IMG/VR virus record: IMGVR_UViG_2740892028_000002
Source: a virus
Taxonomy: Duplodnaviria; Heunggongvirae; Uroviricota; Caudoviricetes
Strand: one strand, 5' to 3'
Length of the DNA: 17,526 nt
Shown here: positions 11,374-17,253 of the stretch, piece after piece
Position numbering within the stretch: the first letter of the stretch is position 1
Layout: every line of letters begins with the position of its first letter
Notes under the pieces: generated by a model
What the model was told of the DNA's origin: nothing
Database searches by the model: none
Seen by the model: the letters and a program-made list of their open reading frames with translations, nothing else
Made by a program: the position numbers and the translations under genes

Positions 11374-12081
11374 ATGGTTCAGAATGAAAAAGTGCGCAAA
11401 GAATTCGCCCAGCGGCTAGCGCAAGCCTGTAAAGAAGCTGGTCTTGATGAACATGGTAGGGGGATGGCCATAGCCCGTGCCCTTTCTCTTTCGTCCAAAG
11501 GCGTTAGCAAATGGTTTAATGCTGAGTCTTTACCGCGTCAGGAAAAAATGAATGCGCTTGCGAAATTTCTAAACGTTGATGTTGTTTGGCTTCAGCACGG
11601 CACTTCGTTAAATGGAGCGAATGATGAAGATACTCTTTCATTTGTTGGCAAATTAAAAAAAGGGTTAGTGCGCGTGGTTGGTGAGGCAATTCTTGGTGTT
11701 GATGGTGCCATCGAGATGACCGAAGAGCGCGATGGGTGGCTCAAAATTTATAGCGATGATCCTGATGCCTTTGGTCTTCGTGTGAAAGGAGACAGCATGT
11801 GGCCCAGAATAAAATCAGGAGAATATGTACTCATTGAGCCTAACACCAAAGTATTCCCGGGTGATGAGGTGTTTGTCAGAACCATCGAAGGACACAACAT
11901 GATCAAGATTCTTGGCTATGACAGAGATGGAGAATACCAATTTACAAGCATCAACCAGGACCACAGACCAATAACGTTGCCTTATCATCAAGTAGCAAAG
12001 GTGGAGTATGTGGCTGGTATTCTGAAGCAATCTCGCCATCTGGATGACATCGAGGCAAGGGAGTGGCTGAGAAATTATTAA
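11374..12081 (+). CDS. cI: CI repressor, HTH plus S24 LexA-like autopeptidase domain
   Basis: 235-aa ORF; N-terminal HTH, C-terminal GDSM (catalytic Ser) motif; no SD and -10 immediately upstream, consistent with leaderless translation. Confidence 0.9.
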   Translation: MVQNEKVRKEFAQRLAQACKEAGLDEHGRGMAIARALSLSSKGVSKWFNAESLPRQEKMNALAKFLNVDVVWLQHGTSLNGANDEDTLSFVGKLKKGLVRVVGEAILGVDGAIEMTEERDGWLKIYSDDPDAFGLRVKGDSMWPRIKSGEYVLIEPNTKVFPGDEVFVRTIEGHNMIKILGYDRDGEYQFTSINQDHRPITLPYHQVAKVEYVAGILKQSRHLDDIEAREWLRNY

Positions 12082-12205
12082 TACCAATAGCATAGAGACG
12101 AAAATGCGACAGGTTTTAGGTACAAATCATAACCCTATCCACAAACAACGTTGTAAATATACACATAAGACTATTGTAAAAAAAGCTCTATCCCAGTAAA
12201 TGCGG

Positions 12206-12234
12206 TTGCAAAATGGGTTGATCGAGCATATATA
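12206..12234 (+). promoter_or_regulatory. candidate sigma70 promoter for cI-downstream cassette
   Basis: TTGCAA (12206..12211), 17-bp spacer, TATATA (12229..12234); caveat: AAGGAG SD of the downstream GTG overlaps the -10. Confidence 0.35.
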
Positions 12235-12247
12235 AGGAGTATAGTTA

Positions 12248-12610
12248 GTGACCCAAGATGAAACGAATGAATATCTGAAAACCTTAGCATTGGTTCCAAG
12301 TGCAGAGGCCTCCGCAGAGGAGAAGCAGATATATAGCGTCAAAAAGGCTGTAATCGGTCTGATTGAATTTGTTACAACCAGTCTTGAAGAGCTTGGAATT
12401 GAAGGGTTGCATGAGTTAACAAACCCATCTCTTGACGAATTAGATGCAGAGCTAGAGAAACTTGACCAAAAAGCTGATGCAATCAATGAACTAAACTTAA
12501 AGCAAATCATCATATTTGCACAGATTTTAATCAAAAACATAAGAGAAAAGAATCCTGATTTGTGCTCTGAGGGATCAAAACTACTCAAGAGTGCTAAATC
12601 GGGTCTTTGA
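12248..12610 (+). CDS. hypothetical acidic protein in rexAB-equivalent position
   Basis: 120-aa ORF, GTG start with AAGGAG 8 nt upstream; visibly AT-rich relative to flanks; predicted helical and acidic. Confidence 0.5.
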   Translation: MTQDETNEYLKTLALVPSAEASAEEKQIYSVKKAVIGLIEFVTTSLEELGIEGLHELTNPSLDELDAELEKLDQKADAINELNLKQIIIFAQILIKNIREKNPDLCSEGSKLLKSAKSGL

Positions 12611-12633
12611 CACTTACAGAGCGGAGGATAAAC

Positions 12634-12756
12634 ATGTCTAGAACTGAACATATCAAAGATATGCTTAAAAGTGCGGATCGAATCAATCAGATTATTGCTG
12701 AAATGAAGCAGAGAAAAGCAGAAATGCTAGCATCAAAGCTTCCAATGGCAGCATAA
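12634..12756 (+). CDS. 40-aa small basic protein
   Basis: MSRTEHIKDMLKSADRINQIIAEMKQRKAEMLASKLPMAA; GGAGG 7 nt upstream of ATG; terminator immediately downstream; below the ORF-track cutoff. Confidence 0.4.
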   Translation: MSRTEHIKDMLKSADRINQIIAEMKQRKAEMLASKLPMAA

Positions 12757-12763
12757 CCAAAAA

Positions 12764-12787
12764 CACCCGCTTCGGCGGGTTTTCTTA
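12764..12787 (+). terminator. intrinsic terminator ending the cI-side cassette
   Basis: ACCCGC-TTCG-GCGGGT perfect 6-bp stem with tetraloop followed by TTTCTT. Confidence 0.7.
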
Positions 12788-13048
12788 TTCCCCTAAAAAG
12801 ATCAAACAACTCCACATTAGCTTTTTTGTGTCCACAGTTTTCTACCTAGCAGTTTTCTTTGCCTCACGATTCCCCCACCTAAAAACACATAACCAATTGT
12901 ATTTATTGAAAAATTGATAGATACAACTTGCTAAACCACGAAATTCTGATCCCTGCCGCATAACCTTCATCCGCAACATTTACAAAAATAAATTTCCTTA
13001 TATATCAAAATCATATTTCGTAGAGTTAATAAACCACAAAATTTTCGT

Positions 13049-13088
13049 ACCAATAGTTCTTGATAATATCGAACTATTGGTTCATTAT
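13049..13088 (+). promoter_or_regulatory. candidate OL/pL: 11-bp inverted repeat overlapping a promoter-like element
   Basis: ACCAATAGTTC (13049..13059) and GAACTATTGGT (13071..13081), perfect inverted repeats; TTGATA (13060..13065), 17 nt, CATTAT (13083..13088) on plus strand toward N. Confidence 0.4.
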
Positions 13089-13134
13089 TATCGCCATCAG
13101 CAGGACGCTGGTAGCCAAACGGAACAGATTGGCA

Positions 13135-13169
13135 TGCTCTTTAACTTCGATGGGGCGCTGACAAAGCGC
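13135..13169 (+). promoter_or_regulatory. nutL: boxA and boxB
   Basis: TGCTCTTTAAC (boxA, 13135..13145) then GCGC-TGACAAA-GCGC hairpin (boxB, 13155..13169), about 120 nt upstream of N. Confidence 0.65.
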
Positions 13170-13288
13170 AAACAGATACCAAACGAGATGGGTTTGGCGG
13201 TGATGTGAATTGCAGCTGCAACGACAGCAACCAGAAGATCAGCACCTGGCGCATCACCACCAAAGCCATTTCACATGAGGAAAACATC

Positions 13289-13597
13289 ATGACGGTAATC
13301 GTGTACGGAAAATCAACATTTGCAGGAAATGCCAAAACTCGCCGTCATGAGCGGCGCAGAAAGCTGGCTATCGAGCGTGATTCCATCTGCAACATCATCG
13401 ATTCGATCTTCGGCACAGACAGTGAGGAAGCTGTTCAGGAAGAACCGAGAAAGCGTTTAAGTCTTTCTGAAAAAGCAATATCACTCGGCATCATCAGTAA
13501 ATCAAATACAGATGCGAATGGCGGAAGCGTTTGTTTGCCTGAAGTTGCACTGTATGCTGCTGGTTACAGGTCAATGAAATCAATTACGGCGAGATAG
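13289..13597 (+). CDS. N: N-type antitermination protein (P22 gene 24-like)
   Basis: Arginine-rich motif GNAKTRRHERRRKLAIER near N-terminus; start taken at MTVIVYGK (GAGG upstream), since the track ORF start at 13205 is an in-frame 5' extension. Confidence 0.8.
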   Translation: MTVIVYGKSTFAGNAKTRRHERRRKLAIERDSICNIIDSIFGTDSEEAVQEEPRKRLSLSEKAISLGIISKSNTDANGGSVCLPEVALYAAGYRSMKSITAR

Positions 13598-13599
13598 AA

Positions 13600-13866
13600 A
13601 TGACTAGCAAACAAGTATCATATAAATGCTATTGCCCTTTATGTGGAAGAAAATTCAGCGCCAAGGCAGCATGGAAGCATATCAATGATTATCATCCAAA
13701 AGCATCAGAACGTGAGTTGATGATGATAAGAGATGTAAAACGAGAAAAAATTTCTTTCGCAACAAAGCCACTAAACGCCAACAAAAACGCAATATTGTAT
13801 CAAATGCATCGTTCAAGTGGTCCAGATTATTCTGGAGGGCTTCCATCTCTTGGAAAGAAAAAATAA
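13600..13866 (+). CDS. hypothetical zinc-ribbon-like protein
   Basis: 88-aa ORF; CPLCGRKFS...HINDYH resembles a C2H2-type metal site; start 2 nt after N stop. Confidence 0.5.
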   Translation: MTSKQVSYKCYCPLCGRKFSAKAAWKHINDYHPKASERELMMIRDVKREKISFATKPLNANKNAILYQMHRSSGPDYSGGLPSLGKKK

Positions 13867-13999: not shown

Positions 14000-14086
14000 A
14001 TGGAAGAAGAATTTGAAGAGTTCGAAGAGCATCCTCAGGATGTGATGGAACAATACCAGGACTATCCGTATGACTACGACTATTGA
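14000..14086 (+). CDS. possible 28-aa highly acidic peptide
   Basis: MEEEFEEFEEHPQDVMEQYQDYPYDYDY; GAGGTGA SD just upstream; overlaps the start of the next ORF out of frame. Confidence 0.3.
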   Translation: MEEEFEEFEEHPQDVMEQYQDYPYDYDY

Positions 14087-14270
14087 TACAAATCAATGGT
14101 GTGGACAATTCAAGCGATGTAATGGATGCAAGCTGCAATCGGAATGCATGGTTAAGCCTGAAGAAATGTTTCCTGTAATGGAGGATGGGAAATATGTCGA
14201 TAAATGGGCAGTACGAACGACGGCAATGATTGCCAGAGAACTTGGTAAACAGAATAACAAGGCTGCCTGA
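14070..14270 (+). CDS. hypothetical small Cys-containing protein
   Basis: 66-aa ORF with CGQFKRCNGCKLQSEC; weak SD; terminator overlaps its stop. Confidence 0.4.
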   Translation: MTTTIDTNQWCGQFKRCNGCKLQSECMVKPEEMFPVMEDGKYVDKWAVRTTAMIARELGKQNNKAA

Positions 14271-14794: not shown

Positions 14795-14889
14795 GCACTG
14801 TGTATTCATTCCAACGAGTGAATACACGGAGCAATGTCGCTCGTAACTAAACAGGAGCCGACTTGTTCTGATTATTGGAAATCTTCTTT

Positions 14890-14916
14890 GCCCTCCAGTG
14901 TGAGGGCGATTTTTTT
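14890..14916 (+). terminator. intrinsic terminator within pL operon
   Basis: GCCCTC-CAGTGT-GAGGGC perfect 6-bp stem followed by G-A-TTTTTTT; 12 nt upstream of the next gene start. Confidence 0.6.
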
Positions 14917-14928
14917 GACGGAGGAAAT

Positions 14929-15240
14929 ATGAAATTACGTGTCTGGCATATCCCGCAAGTACCTATGAAACCGTTCATTGTAGAAGTGGCAAGTGTTGAA
15001 GAGGGTGTTCGCCTGATGGATGCACTGGCTGATTATGACGCCTTTCAGTATGACAACAACATCAAGCCTGACTACTGCAATGCTAACGGCCTTGAGATGT
15101 GGGATGAGAGTCTTACCGATGAAGATTTATCAGAGATGGGGCTTACGGATCGCTGGGTGGATTGGTACAGCGAATGCCAATGTTACGACGACCCACGTAA
15201 ATATCTCGAAAGCCTGAAAGAAGAAACATCAGCCGCCTAA
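14929..15240 (+). CDS. hypothetical acidic protein
   Basis: Start chosen at MKLRVWHIPQV (GGAGG 5 nt upstream); the track start at 14875 would place a terminator inside the CDS. Confidence 0.5.
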   Translation: MKLRVWHIPQVPMKPFIVEVASVEEGVRLMDALADYDAFQYDNNIKPDYCNANGLEMWDESLTDEDLSEMGLTDRWVDWYSECQCYDDPRKYLESLKEETSAA

Positions 15241-15567: not shown

Positions 15568-15879
15568 ATGATGATTCTGACTCTGAATGATAAGCGTGAA
15601 ATATCGCAAATAATCGCAAGTTTTACTGATGAAGATTACGAACGAATCAACAGTGAAGTTGATCGCCTCTGCAAACGTTGCGACCCAATAAGCGAAATGC
15701 TTCGCTCATATAAACCAGATGAACACACTAAGGACGCTATCGACTGGCTGGAAGATGATGACTGTGACTATCAGGAAAAAGCCGCTGAATGGTTCTGGGA
15801 TGCAATAACCGAAAGAGTTAAGGCTGAATATGCCTTCGCAATATTCAAACGCAGACACATTTATGGAGAAGCAGCATGA
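15568..15879 (+). CDS. hypothetical acidic protein upstream of recT
   Basis: 103-aa ORF; ATGA overlap with the recT start. Confidence 0.5.
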   Translation: MMILTLNDKREISQIIASFTDEDYERINSEVDRLCKRCDPISEMLRSYKPDEHTKDAIDWLEDDDCDYQEKAAEWFWDAITERVKAEYAFAIFKRRHIYGEAA

Positions 15880-16787
15880 GCAATATCGTTGAATTCGTTA
15901 AACAGCAGGAGCAGTTATTCTGCGGAGCATTGACTGAACAGACGGTGACATGGGCTAAGGAAAGCCAGTTTGCAATTCAGTATTTCCAGAAAAATGATTA
16001 CCTGGCTAAAACGGCACTGGCAAATCCAACCAGCGCACAGAACGCCATCATCAATGTTGCGGCGATCGGCATCACCTTAAACCCGGCCAGCAAACTTGCT
16101 TATCTAGTTCCGCGCGACGGCATGGTTTGCCTTGATATCAGCTATATGGGATTGCTCCATATTGCAATGGAGTCTGGTGTTATCTCATGGGGTCAGGCAA
16201 AACTTGTTCATGCTAACGATACCTATGAGTCAAACGGGCTTGATAAAGCACCAACCCATAAATACAACGCCTTCGGTGATCGTGGTGATATCGTTGGCGT
16301 TTACTGCACAGTTAAGACGCCGGCAGGTGATTATCTAACGGAAGAGATGAGTATTGCTGAAATTGAGGCTGTAAGGAAAACAAGCAAGGCGGCATTCAGC
16401 GATAAAGGACCATGGGTAAATCACTGGAATGAGATGGCGCGAAAGACGGTCGTGAAGCGTGCAAGCAAGTATTGGCCTAAGGCATCACGTCTTGATAGTG
16501 CTATTCACGTACTAAACGAAGAAGAAGGTGTATGGACTGAACCAGTTATGCCGCACAAATCAGAGGAAGATATCCGCGAAGATGAACGGAAACGCCAGCA
16601 GGAAATAATGGATAAAGCACAACTTCTTTGCGATGAAATGGCTCAGGCAGAAAACATGGATGATTTGAAGCGATATTTTGCAGAAGCATATCGCCTGACA
16701 TCTAGAATGAAATTGCAGCAGAACGTACAAGCCATTTACATAGAATGCAAAGCGAAACTGGAGGTTGCCAGTGAGCAAACTGTATGA
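15876..16787 (+). CDS. recT: RecT-family single-strand annealing recombinase
   Basis: 303-aa ORF; GPWVNHWNEMARKTVVKRASKYWP matches the conserved RecT core (GPWVTHWEEMAKKTAIRRLFKYLP in E. coli RecT). Confidence 0.85.
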   Translation: MSNIVEFVKQQEQLFCGALTEQTVTWAKESQFAIQYFQKNDYLAKTALANPTSAQNAIINVAAIGITLNPASKLAYLVPRDGMVCLDISYMGLLHIAMESGVISWGQAKLVHANDTYESNGLDKAPTHKYNAFGDRGDIVGVYCTVKTPAGDYLTEEMSIAEIEAVRKTSKAAFSDKGPWVNHWNEMARKTVVKRASKYWPKASRLDSAIHVLNEEEGVWTEPVMPHKSEEDIREDERKRQQEIMDKAQLLCDEMAQAENMDDLKRYFAEAYRLTSRMKLQQNVQAIYIECKAKLEVASEQTV

Positions 16788-17253
16788 AATAGCCAATGAA
16801 TACGCAAAATTGATGGATTCAGATTTAGAGCCAGAGATGATTGCTGACACAATAGAAGGCATGGAAGGAGAATTTACCGATAAAATAGAGCAACTTCTCG
16901 CCATTATTAAAAATGAATCTGGTTATGCTGAACGCCTCAAGGAAGAGGCAAAGTCACTAAATGAGCGAGCCGCAGTAATTCAAAATAAGATTGACAGCAT
17001 TATGGCGTATATAGCGTCATCGCTTGAAATGGTTGGCAAGAAAAAGATTCGAGCAGGTATTCACCAGGTAACAATCCGCAAACCGTCAGAAACTGTAGAA
17101 ATCATCGACTCAAGCGCCCTTCCTCCTGAATACGTTGAGTTCGAAACGACAATTAAAGCCGACAAGCTGGCAATCAAACACCAACTAAAAGCAGGAATAA
17201 ATATCCCCGGTGCTCAACTCAAAGTTGGGAAACCTTCACTTCTTATCAAATAA
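16771..17253 (+). CDS. Gp157-like coiled-coil protein, recombination-module partner
   Basis: Family assignment from recollection of Gp157-like proteins that accompany phage RecT/Erf genes; start taken at GTG 16771 (GGAGG 7 nt upstream) rather than the TTG at 16765. Confidence 0.5.
   Translation: MSKLYEIANEYAKLMDSDLEPEMIADTIEGMEGEFTDKIEQLLAIIKNESGYAERLKEEAKSLNERAAVIQNKIDSIMAYIASSLEMVGKKKIRAGIHQVTIRKPSETVEIIDSSALPPEYVEFETTIKADKLAIKHQLKAGINIPGAQLKVGKPSLLIK

Follow-up and report, generated by a model that had tools for sequence, protein, structure and literature searches.

The stretch of DNA considered here (17,526 nucleotides (nt) of the IMG/VR virus record IMGVR_UViG_2740892028_000002, a member of Caudoviricetes; "the window" hereafter, position 1 being its first letter) covers the immunity/early region of a prophage of the lambdoid type, in which a 777-bp insert (approximately 12075-12851) lies between a 933W-type cI repressor gene and the tImm-flank/pL/nutL/N region. 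The insert carries a cassette of two small open reading frames (ORFs), ORF-A and ORF-B (A and B for short), which recur together on different genetic elements, are unrelated to any named protein family and, in the case of B, nearly always encode a peptide with an Ala-Ala C-terminus. The features needed to follow the argument are these:

11374-12081, plus strand: cI repressor gene with helix-turn-helix (HTH) and S24 domains (Pfam HTH_3 and Peptidase_S24, phrog_4), of the 933W immunity type
12082-12247, plus strand: spacer between cI and A, 166 nt, guanine-cytosine (GC) content 0.35, the left part of the insert, its sequence not common to 933W
12206-12234, plus strand: promoter-like block, TTGCAA (12206-12211), 17 nt, TATATA (12229-12234)
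12218-12245, plus strand: overlapping second promoter reading, TTGATC (12218-12223), 16 nt, TATAGT (12240-12245)
12234-12239, plus strand: Shine-Dalgarno sequence AAGGAG of ORF-A, 8 nt 5' of the GTG, within the nearly invariant block TATATAAGGAGTATAGTTAGTG
12248-12610, plus strand: ORF-A, 120 amino acids (aa), GTG start, isoelectric point (pI) 4.6, net charge -9
12623-12627, plus strand: Shine-Dalgarno sequence GGAGG of ORF-B, 6 nt 5' of the ATG
12634-12756, plus strand: ORF-B, 40 aa, ATG start, pI 9.8, net charge +3
12745-12753, plus strand: C-terminal Met-Ala-Ala of ORF-B, a candidate ssrA/ClpX-type degron; Ala-Ala invariant in the family, the usual tail being (K/R)KAA
12765-12790, plus strand: intrinsic terminator, hairpin ACCCGCTTCGGCGGGT (12765-12780) and then TTTTCTTATT; 6-bp GC-rich stem, 4-nt loop, T-tract
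12820-12870, plus strand: right junction, with an orphan T-tract GCTTTTTTGTGTCC, CAGTTTTCT present twice, and the lambda tImm-distal GTTTTCTTTGCCTCACGAT without the tImm hairpin

An earlier reading of this stretch, made from its letters alone (the original prediction below), had described a 120-aa acidic helical protein, a 40-aa peptide with a strong Shine-Dalgarno sequence and a terminator, forming a discrete two-gene cassette in the position of lambda rexAB, and every one of these elements is indeed present. Over positions 1-701 of its 708 nt, the window cI is 98% identical at the nucleotide level to that of 933W and about 140 Shiga toxin (Stx) and related phages, the identity to 933W-type phages ending 7 nt before the cI stop codon, and similarity to the Stx-phage backbone starts again at about 12852; the genes found 3' of cI in 933W are L0084, L0083, stk and L0081, followed by the terminator tM, and it is in their place that the window cassette stands. 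To its right, the flanking sequence (GTTTTCTTTGCCTCACGAT...ACACATAACCAATTGTATTTATTGAAAAAT) can be aligned with the lambda sequence just past the tImm hairpin at the rexB end, and these flank alignments put the insert, on the strand of cI, in the exact position of rexA-rexB in lambda. The cI-tImm interval is the classic home of lysogen-expressed exclusion genes, with rexAB, 933W stk and 434 hex being the repressor-cotranscribed ones described for the slot downstream of cI (PMC3564112) and BstA being a further exclusion/abortive-infection occupant (PMC8585504); the cassette is one more occupant, unrelated to the described ones.

The T-tract at the right junction and the 9-nt duplicate CAGTTTTCT (12835-12843 and 12850-12858) look as if recombination had left them behind when modules were exchanged at the terminator, and in a locus with a distant subtype of the cassette (L034) a lambda-type tImm hairpin directly follows the stop codon of the small gene. 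The GC content is 0.39 for the cassette and 0.35 for the cI-A gap vs. 0.43 for the 2-kb flanks, the cassette lying 4-9 points under its flanks in 13/13 compared loci; the pL/N region downstream is likewise AT-rich. The dip noted in the original prediction is thus real, but it is modest, and calling the composition "foreign" overstates it.

Pairing, distribution and orphan status of the two genes

Judging from the comparison of related loci, both ORF-A and ORF-B are protein-coding genes under purifying selection, since the nonsynonymous divergence (pN) is well below the synonymous one (pS) in each of them (medians of 0.33 vs. 0.83 for A and of 0.32 vs. 0.69 for B, over 12-13 non-redundant loci with saturated synonymous sites) and since the pair recurs. 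A long antisense ORF at 12127-12651 (minus strand) was rejected, being unconserved in most of the related loci, with the sense frame under purifying selection.

The A/B pair was found in 19/19 distinct loci examined, a 40-aa ORF lies 21-69 nt 3' of A in all 47 IMG/VR loci but one (a disrupted copy), A of the Klebsiella phage vB_Kpn_RAH1 is likewise followed by a 40-aa ORF, and a small downstream partner accompanies A in every intact locus examined (13 enterobacterial groups, an Aeromonas phage and five of the five remote relatives). A and B are, in other words, adjacent co-directional small genes co-inherited on mobile elements, as is the case for type II toxin-antitoxin (TA) modules. In the enterobacterial loci an HTH + S24 repressor gene is always found upstream on the same strand, the repressors being of several unrelated sequence/immunity types. 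Other settings include the interval between int/dinI and the tail-fibre genes (Aeromonas phage AsXd-1), a site upstream of the tail genes L/K/I/J (L058), the vicinity of an integrase gene (L060), and contigs with RepL or Rep3/MobC plasmid genes (L056 and L061). At L059 (2253-2790) the pair forms an islet of GC 0.31 between darP and tsaD in a Neisseria-like chromosome of GC 0.52, where two inverted copies of GCCGTCTGAA, the Neisseria DNA uptake sequence, form its terminator, so that the family reaches betaproteobacterial chromosomes outside prophages. Addiction/defence modules typically move in this way, as one unit, between prophages, plasmids and chromosomes, and such hopping of the pair makes a function that depends on a single repressor less likely.

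A distant subtype, consisting of a 126-aa A (28% identity) and a 33-aa B ending in KKAA, is present whole in 32 of the 5426 complete Escherichia coli genomes; it is seen, for example, at L034 (3968-4519, IMG/VR) and in NZ_CP019250.1, and the Prokaryotic Genome Annotation Pipeline (PGAP) annotates its larger gene only, missing the 33-aa B variant in E. coli genomes, so peptides of this kind often go uncalled. No match to the cassette was obtained by megablast among 50,697 phage records, tblastn hits were limited to one distant Klebsiella phage for A and one Aeromonas phage for the distant-subtype query, and a tblastn search of 72,556 plasmids returned no match. In the prophage of E. coli 214-4 (L001, 16255-18680), an IS66-family element is situated just 3' of the cassette and before the early-left genes, with no N annotated between them, and this prophage copy is probably defective.

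The A family is acidic throughout (pI 4.3-5.3, net charge from -3 to -11), and an AlphaFold2 model built from a 41-sequence alignment is all-helical, as had been anticipated, at moderate confidence (predicted local distance difference test score (pLDDT) 75.9, predicted template modelling score (pTM) 0.58), the predicted helices 3-14, 23-58, 61-78, 82-99 and 103-119 forming a bundle of four to five. A hallmark motif, G-I/M-x-G-L/M-x-E-L/I-T/V-N/D-P-S-L-D/E-D/E-L, falls at the predicted helix 2/3 junction, and G50, P60 and S61 are the sole invariant residues of the alignment. As no conserved catalytic-type residue was seen in the family alignment, A seems more likely to be a binding protein than an enzyme. 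Homologues of A amount to 21 clusters in a search of 5.8 billion proteins and to 30 representatives in an exhaustive hidden Markov model (HMM) search of 1.84 billion proteins (59-135 aa, zero fusions), so far as these searches can tell an orphan family of about 30 clusters; a 74-aa "truncated A" that is listed among the clusters corresponds to the C-terminal portion of this gene, read from the internal Met53, and would be either an alternative gene call or a truncation.

The orphan status applies to both products, which are annotated just as hypothetical in E. coli genomes. The original prediction, which could name no relative for either, is borne out by searches of Pfam, PHROGs, PADLOC, NCBIfam, the PDB and fold libraries, none of which gave a named family. 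The lone family match for A is phrog_16322, of unknown function (E = 1.7e-6), and per-member scans of the 41 A homologues revealed no consistent family; the AbiEi match from PADLOC-DB v2 (E = 0.004, 14.8 bits, 4/41 A members only, B without any match) was dismissed as noise. A literature search by accession and theme found no description of the A/B proteins.

The Ala-Ala end of the small peptide and the expression signals

As read from its sequence, B would consist of one amphipathic helix (approximately residues 7-33, heptad pattern I7, M10, A14, I17, I21, M24, M31) and a short flexible tail ending ...P-M-A-A-COOH. Its homologues comprise 54 clusters, nearly all of 40 aa, found in Escherichia, Klebsiella, Enterobacter, Citrobacter, Cronobacter, Yersinia, Serratia, Pantoea, Hafnia, Morganella, Providencia and others. 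The original prediction had called the peptide basic, which holds for the window copy (pI 9.8) and not for the family in general, the net charge ranging from -1 to +8, with several lineages being neutral or mildly basic. What the family does share is its end: in alignment A2, the invariant columns are M1, A39 and A40 only, with a nearly invariant Lys before the Ala-Ala, and 52/54 clusters end in AA. The two clusters without it are uninformative, one (P0070) coming from an assembly riddled with frameshifts and ambiguous bases/codons and the other (P0071) being a shortened remnant beside a type I restriction-modification (R-M) system. At L054 (3001-3096), a truncated B-like ORF of 31 aa, without the Ala-Ala, lies directly 3' of the type I R-M gene hsdS; an A gene is absent there, and the ORF was probably left over where recombination joined two sequences in a defence island.

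Across the loci, the two terminal alanines are encoded by all four GCN codons, and the constraint therefore acts on the protein. The same end is found in the partners of the five remote A homologues (KKAA, RKAA, KKAA, QKAA and KKAA), which have little else in common with the window B, and in the Aeromonas partner of A (KKAA); several B tails have Pro or polar residues past the helix. Among the 100 strongest C-terminal tags of an E. coli pentapeptide screen, 91% had Ala-Ala at their end; the strongest tags were ClpXP-dependent, and the dominant ClpXP-dependent C-terminal degrons were Ala-Ala tags with neutral or positive residues upstream (PMC10862746). B shows the sequence traits of a ClpX C-terminal degron that follow from that work, namely a free Ala-Ala end, non-acidic residues before it and an accessible tail (PMC10862746). 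The resemblance of the tail to ssrA-like ClpX degrons suggests that B may be a constitutively short-lived peptide. Like the ssrA tag (...LAA), B ends in a free Ala-Ala after basic residues; unlike it, the B tail is genomically encoded rather than added by transfer-messenger RNA (tmRNA), and has Lys or Met instead of the favoured Leu at position -3. Related ClpX signals are reportedly those of MuA (...RRKKAI) and YbaQ (...AKKVA), described by Flynn et al. in 2003. If the degron reading is true, B would show that regulatory peptides with a genomically encoded ssrA-like tag occur in nature, and the invariance of the Ala-Ala already turns ClpXP-controlled lability into a concrete and cheaply testable hypothesis.

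As to transcription, no terminator was found between the repressor gene and A, either in the window spacer or in the equivalent gap of 13/13 related loci, which makes read-through from the repressor promoter pRM plausible, and the cassette would then be co-transcribed with the repressor. A terminator lies at most about 60 nt past B in 13/13 loci (in many of them it is the lambda-type tImm hairpin itself), and the one in the window probably ends the pRM/cassette transcript; since its hairpin is preceded by the A-run CCAAAAACA, it scores on the minus strand too and may act bidirectionally.

The TTGCAA-17-TATATA promoter of the original prediction is a more delicate matter. The motif is there, with one match in the window vs. 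0.03 expected, and it stands at an equal offset to the A start in 30 fetched loci, the main-family loci without it at that offset being L015, L030 (locus starts at gene), and L031/L032 (hexamers/spacing slightly different). A generic sigma-70 scan of the region gave no enrichment (5 sites vs. 4.7 expected), and the support for the block comes from its conservation rather than from the motif match itself: about 47 nt 5' of the A start are conserved (alignment A4) in lineages with saturated synonymous sites, following the pattern TTGAAA-N6-TTGAT-N-(C/T)ATATA-AGGAG-TATAGT-TA-GTG, and this block may act as a promoter. Its geometry is, however, odd, as a start about 7 nt past TATATA would yield a transcript devoid of the ORF-A Shine-Dalgarno sequence, whereas in the alternative TTGATC-16-TATAGT reading the start would fall inside codon 2-3 of A; this alternative is not universal either, one hexamer being absent in L010, L027, L002, L031 and L032. 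One may speculate that pRM read-through RNA would allow the translation of both genes and RNA from the internal promoter that of B alone, which would add to an asymmetry of start codons that already favours B: the A start is GTG or TTG in 11/12 enterobacterial groups, while that of B is always ATG after a GGAG-type Shine-Dalgarno sequence (19/19 tabulated loci).

A sigma-32-type reading of the block, TTGAAA-N13-15-CCCCATNT, was set aside, as it fits well in the Aeromonas copy and loosely in the enterobacterial ones, and stress-responsive transcription of the cassette is put forward here as an idea only. In the Aeromonas phage AsXd-1 (L052, 2870-2990) the upstream block has TTGAAA-N14-CCCCATCAT, which fits the sigma-32 consensus well, and also contains TTGATT-16-TATGAT, followed by a leader of about 40 nt. 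Rfam gave no match above the gathering score over 11900-13400 (the best being far below the threshold), and folding of the leader RNA indicated no significant structure (z = -1.18).

Possible roles of the pair

We favour, with a probability of roughly 0.4, the explanation that A and B are a proteolysis-gated TA-like pair expressed in the lysogen, the likely role of which is exclusion/abortive infection or stabilisation of the element, because of the slot (shared with rexAB, 933W stk, 434 hex and BstA) and because of the element-hopping distribution. The mobile two-gene operon (A, then B, then the terminator) would most likely be transcribed in the lysogen by pRM read-through and possibly from its own promoter-like block too; A would be a stable, acidic, non-enzymatic helical-bundle protein, the exposed (K/M)-Ala-Ala tail of B would subject it to rapid turnover by ClpXP (or ClpAP/FtsH), and the B helix would bind A. 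With B short-lived and better translated (ATG and GGAGG vs. GTG for A), the A:B balance might report on gene expression or protease activity, so that, once the supply of B stops or proteolysis shifts, free A, or the loss of the A-B complex, would affect the cell or an incoming phage. Candidate triggers are prophage induction, loss of the element and a superinfection that shuts off the host, and the pay-off would be the exclusion of competing phages or the stabilisation of the carrying element, by TA/abortive-infection logic. What the data above establish is the anatomy and conservation of the pair, its coupling, slot and mobility, its orphan status and the invariance of the tail; the degradation of B, its interaction with A, the identity of the effector and any phenotype are inferred. 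The exclusion, abortive-infection or TA-like module envisaged by the original prediction is compatible with all this and is somewhat strengthened by the mobility of the unit and by the Ala-Ala tail of B, but it has gained no defence or toxin homology.

Several points weigh against this explanation. Scans of both proteins against Pfam, PHROGs, PADLOC and NCBIfam gave no toxin, antitoxin or defence match, the PDB sequence/profile search with A yielded no relative, and the fold-library searches with A returned generic helical bundles only, with no toxin or defence relative among them, so that no recognised toxin fold or family was seen in A or B by any of these routes. No DNA-binding domain (HTH, ribbon-helix-helix (RHH), AbrB or Phd/YefM) was detected in either protein either, and, with B lacking one, the classical type II autoregulation scheme is inapplicable. 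Ala-Ala alone is insufficient for a degron, 39% of the AA-ending tags having been weak in the pentapeptide screen, in which, moreover, the antepenultimate residue was preferably Leu rather than Lys (PMC10862746); the window B tail is, besides, PMAA and not KAA. An acidic helical bundle without a conserved active site would make an unusual toxin, such proteins being more often antidotes or chaperones, and the exact cassette is rare, having been found in 4/5426 complete E. coli genomes, in a torS/torT prophage.

Comparison with known systems places the module among a known kind (accessory/moron pairs in the cI-tImm slot and TA-like pairs) without relating it to any described family. It shares with lambda rexA-rexB the interval from the cI stop to tImm, the cI strand, a two-gene unit ending at a terminator and the absence of a terminator after cI; there is, in contrast, no sequence relation (no RexA/RexB homology in Pfam, PHROGs or NCBIfam), RexA and RexB being, by their annotated coordinates, 279 and 144 aa long as opposed to the small, predicted-soluble A and B. 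RexB is a membrane protein, whereas B is a 40-aa amphipathic peptide with a degron-like tail, and the pair includes no multi-pass membrane partner. The 933W genes L0084-L0083-stk-L0081 and BstA of Salmonella phage BTP1 occupy the same slot downstream of cI with prophage exclusion/abortive-infection functions, but Stk (a Ser/Thr/Tyr kinase) and BstA are unrelated proteins, and A and B have no detectable enzymatic or DNA-binding domain; BstA is also much larger than either. With the TA modules that have a labile partner (Phd-Doc/ClpXP, MazEF/ClpAP, RnlAB and SocAB), A/B have in common a small co-directional pair that moves together, one partner predicted to be unstable, and translation signals favouring an excess of that partner; the differences are the lack of toxin/antitoxin homology, a B of 40 aa without a DNA-binding domain and an A without catalytic residues.

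The most probable of the competing explanations is one in which the polarity is reversed: B would be an active inhibitor or toxin, held harmless by proteolysis and by A as an acidic antidote or chaperone, after the manner of TomB-Hha/YmoB-YmoA or SocAB, and indeed the toxin of the type VI SocAB system is a ClpXP substrate. The gene order, with the acidic protein of about 120 aa first and the small basic one second, is the canonical antitoxin-toxin and tomB-hha order, the helix core of B (L-A-x-R-L-N-E-I-V-A-E-M) is better conserved than the surface of A, and FliS-type chaperone bundles are among the weak fold matches of A. We nevertheless regard this polarity as unlikely. An identity with TomB/Hha was rejected, hhalign giving a probability of 0.1% for both A-TomB (Pfam YbaJ) and B-Hha, with a merely generic fold resemblance of A, and Hha has 72 aa and no AA tail; B is, furthermore, just mildly basic or neutral in several lineages, and a labile toxin by itself supplies no trigger for addiction or abortive infection.

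Less probable still, and in our opinion doubtful, is that the pair tunes the lysis-lysogeny switch or the induction threshold of its own prophage, in a Hex-, RexA- or cIII-like manner. Lambda cIII, a small peptide with an amphipathic helix, acts on (inhibits) a host protease, and the pRM transcript, past the repressor, is the source from which 434 Hex is translated, as A and B would be; in 13 enterobacterial lineages the pair itself directly follows the repressor gene, probably co-transcribed with it, and in the Aeromonas phage it adjoins a DinI-like gene. The slot also provides precedents, as Hex blocks the RecA-stimulated cleavage of the 434 repressor (PMC3564112) and RexA biases the lambda lysis-lysogeny switch (PMC11077077). 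The same pair is, however, found behind repressors of unrelated immunity types as well as without a nearby repressor (the tail-gene site, the Rep3/MobC and RepL contigs and the Neisseria-like chromosome), which makes a repressor-specific partner unlikely, and the family scans, which did not include a comparison with Hex itself, show no cIII or RexA similarity.

Rather improbable, too, is a modulation of host proteolysis by the pair, with B as a ClpXP decoy or competitive inhibitor, or A as an adaptor or anti-adaptor, so that phage replication proteins or host antitoxins would be stabilised. B does bear a ClpX-type tail, and RexB, the lambda occupant of the same slot, has been reported to prevent the degradation of the labile antitoxin MazE (PMC4255059). 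The low level of pRM read-through to be expected is, on the other hand, hard to square with the saturation of an abundant protease, A resembles neither SspB nor the RssB anti-adaptors nor any Pfam family, and a decoy needs no strictly co-inherited 120-aa partner. That the ORFs are spurious or decaying passengers without a function, as the rarity of the cassette in complete E. coli genomes and its solely hypothetical products might be taken to mean, deserves hardly any credence, being contradicted by a pN well below pS in both genes, by a length, Shine-Dalgarno sequence, pairing and C-terminal end that are all retained between genomes as far apart as those of Escherichia, Aeromonas and a Neisseria-like bacterium, and by the conserved upstream block.

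Returning to the proteolysis-gated pair expressed in the lysogen, a more general form of it can be offered tentatively: A/B might represent an unrecognised family of proteolysis-timed two-protein switches, in which a (K)AA-tagged peptide of 30-54 residues gates an orphan helical-bundle effector via minute-scale ClpXP turnover. If that were true, A/B would be a new TA/abortive-infection type that is carried by prophages and plasmids and ranges from Neisseria-like genomes and from Aeromonas to Enterobacterales. In lambdoid phages it would functionally stand in for rexAB, and it might be the founding case of a new minimal TA or defence architecture. Another moron in the slot is in itself unsurprising; what is distinctive is the Ala-Ala tail hard-wired family-wide, the strict pairing and the broad host range.

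Neighbouring genes of the prophage

On either side of cI and the cassette, the window contains the following features:

end at about 11328, minus strand: cro-like gene, divergent, adjoining the cI region
13060-13088, plus strand: pL-like promoter, 3' of the cassette terminator
13135-13169, plus strand: nutL, with a boxA TGCTCTTTAAC and a boxB GCGCTGACAAAGCGC that we take to be of the P22 type
13289-13597, plus strand: N gene, with the P22-type arginine-rich motif GNAKTRRHERRRKLAIER
13600-13866: Cys-rich 88-aa ORF directly after N (CPLCGRKF...H...H, zinc-finger-like), a full-length match to phrog_20899 (E = 2e-64), of unknown function
14070-14270: ral, early-left operon
14875-15240: sieB-like superinfection exclusion gene, early-left operon
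15876-16787: RecT gene, early-left operon
16765-17253: Mu-Gam-like end-protection gene, early-left operon

The N gene probably starts at the ATG at 13289, the listed 130-aa ORF being over-extended, since the N_peptide domain begins at its residue 29. Having a 933W-type cI next to a P22-type N/nut, the phage combines both systems and, given the sieB-like gene, the prophage already encodes another exclusion function besides whatever the cassette may provide.

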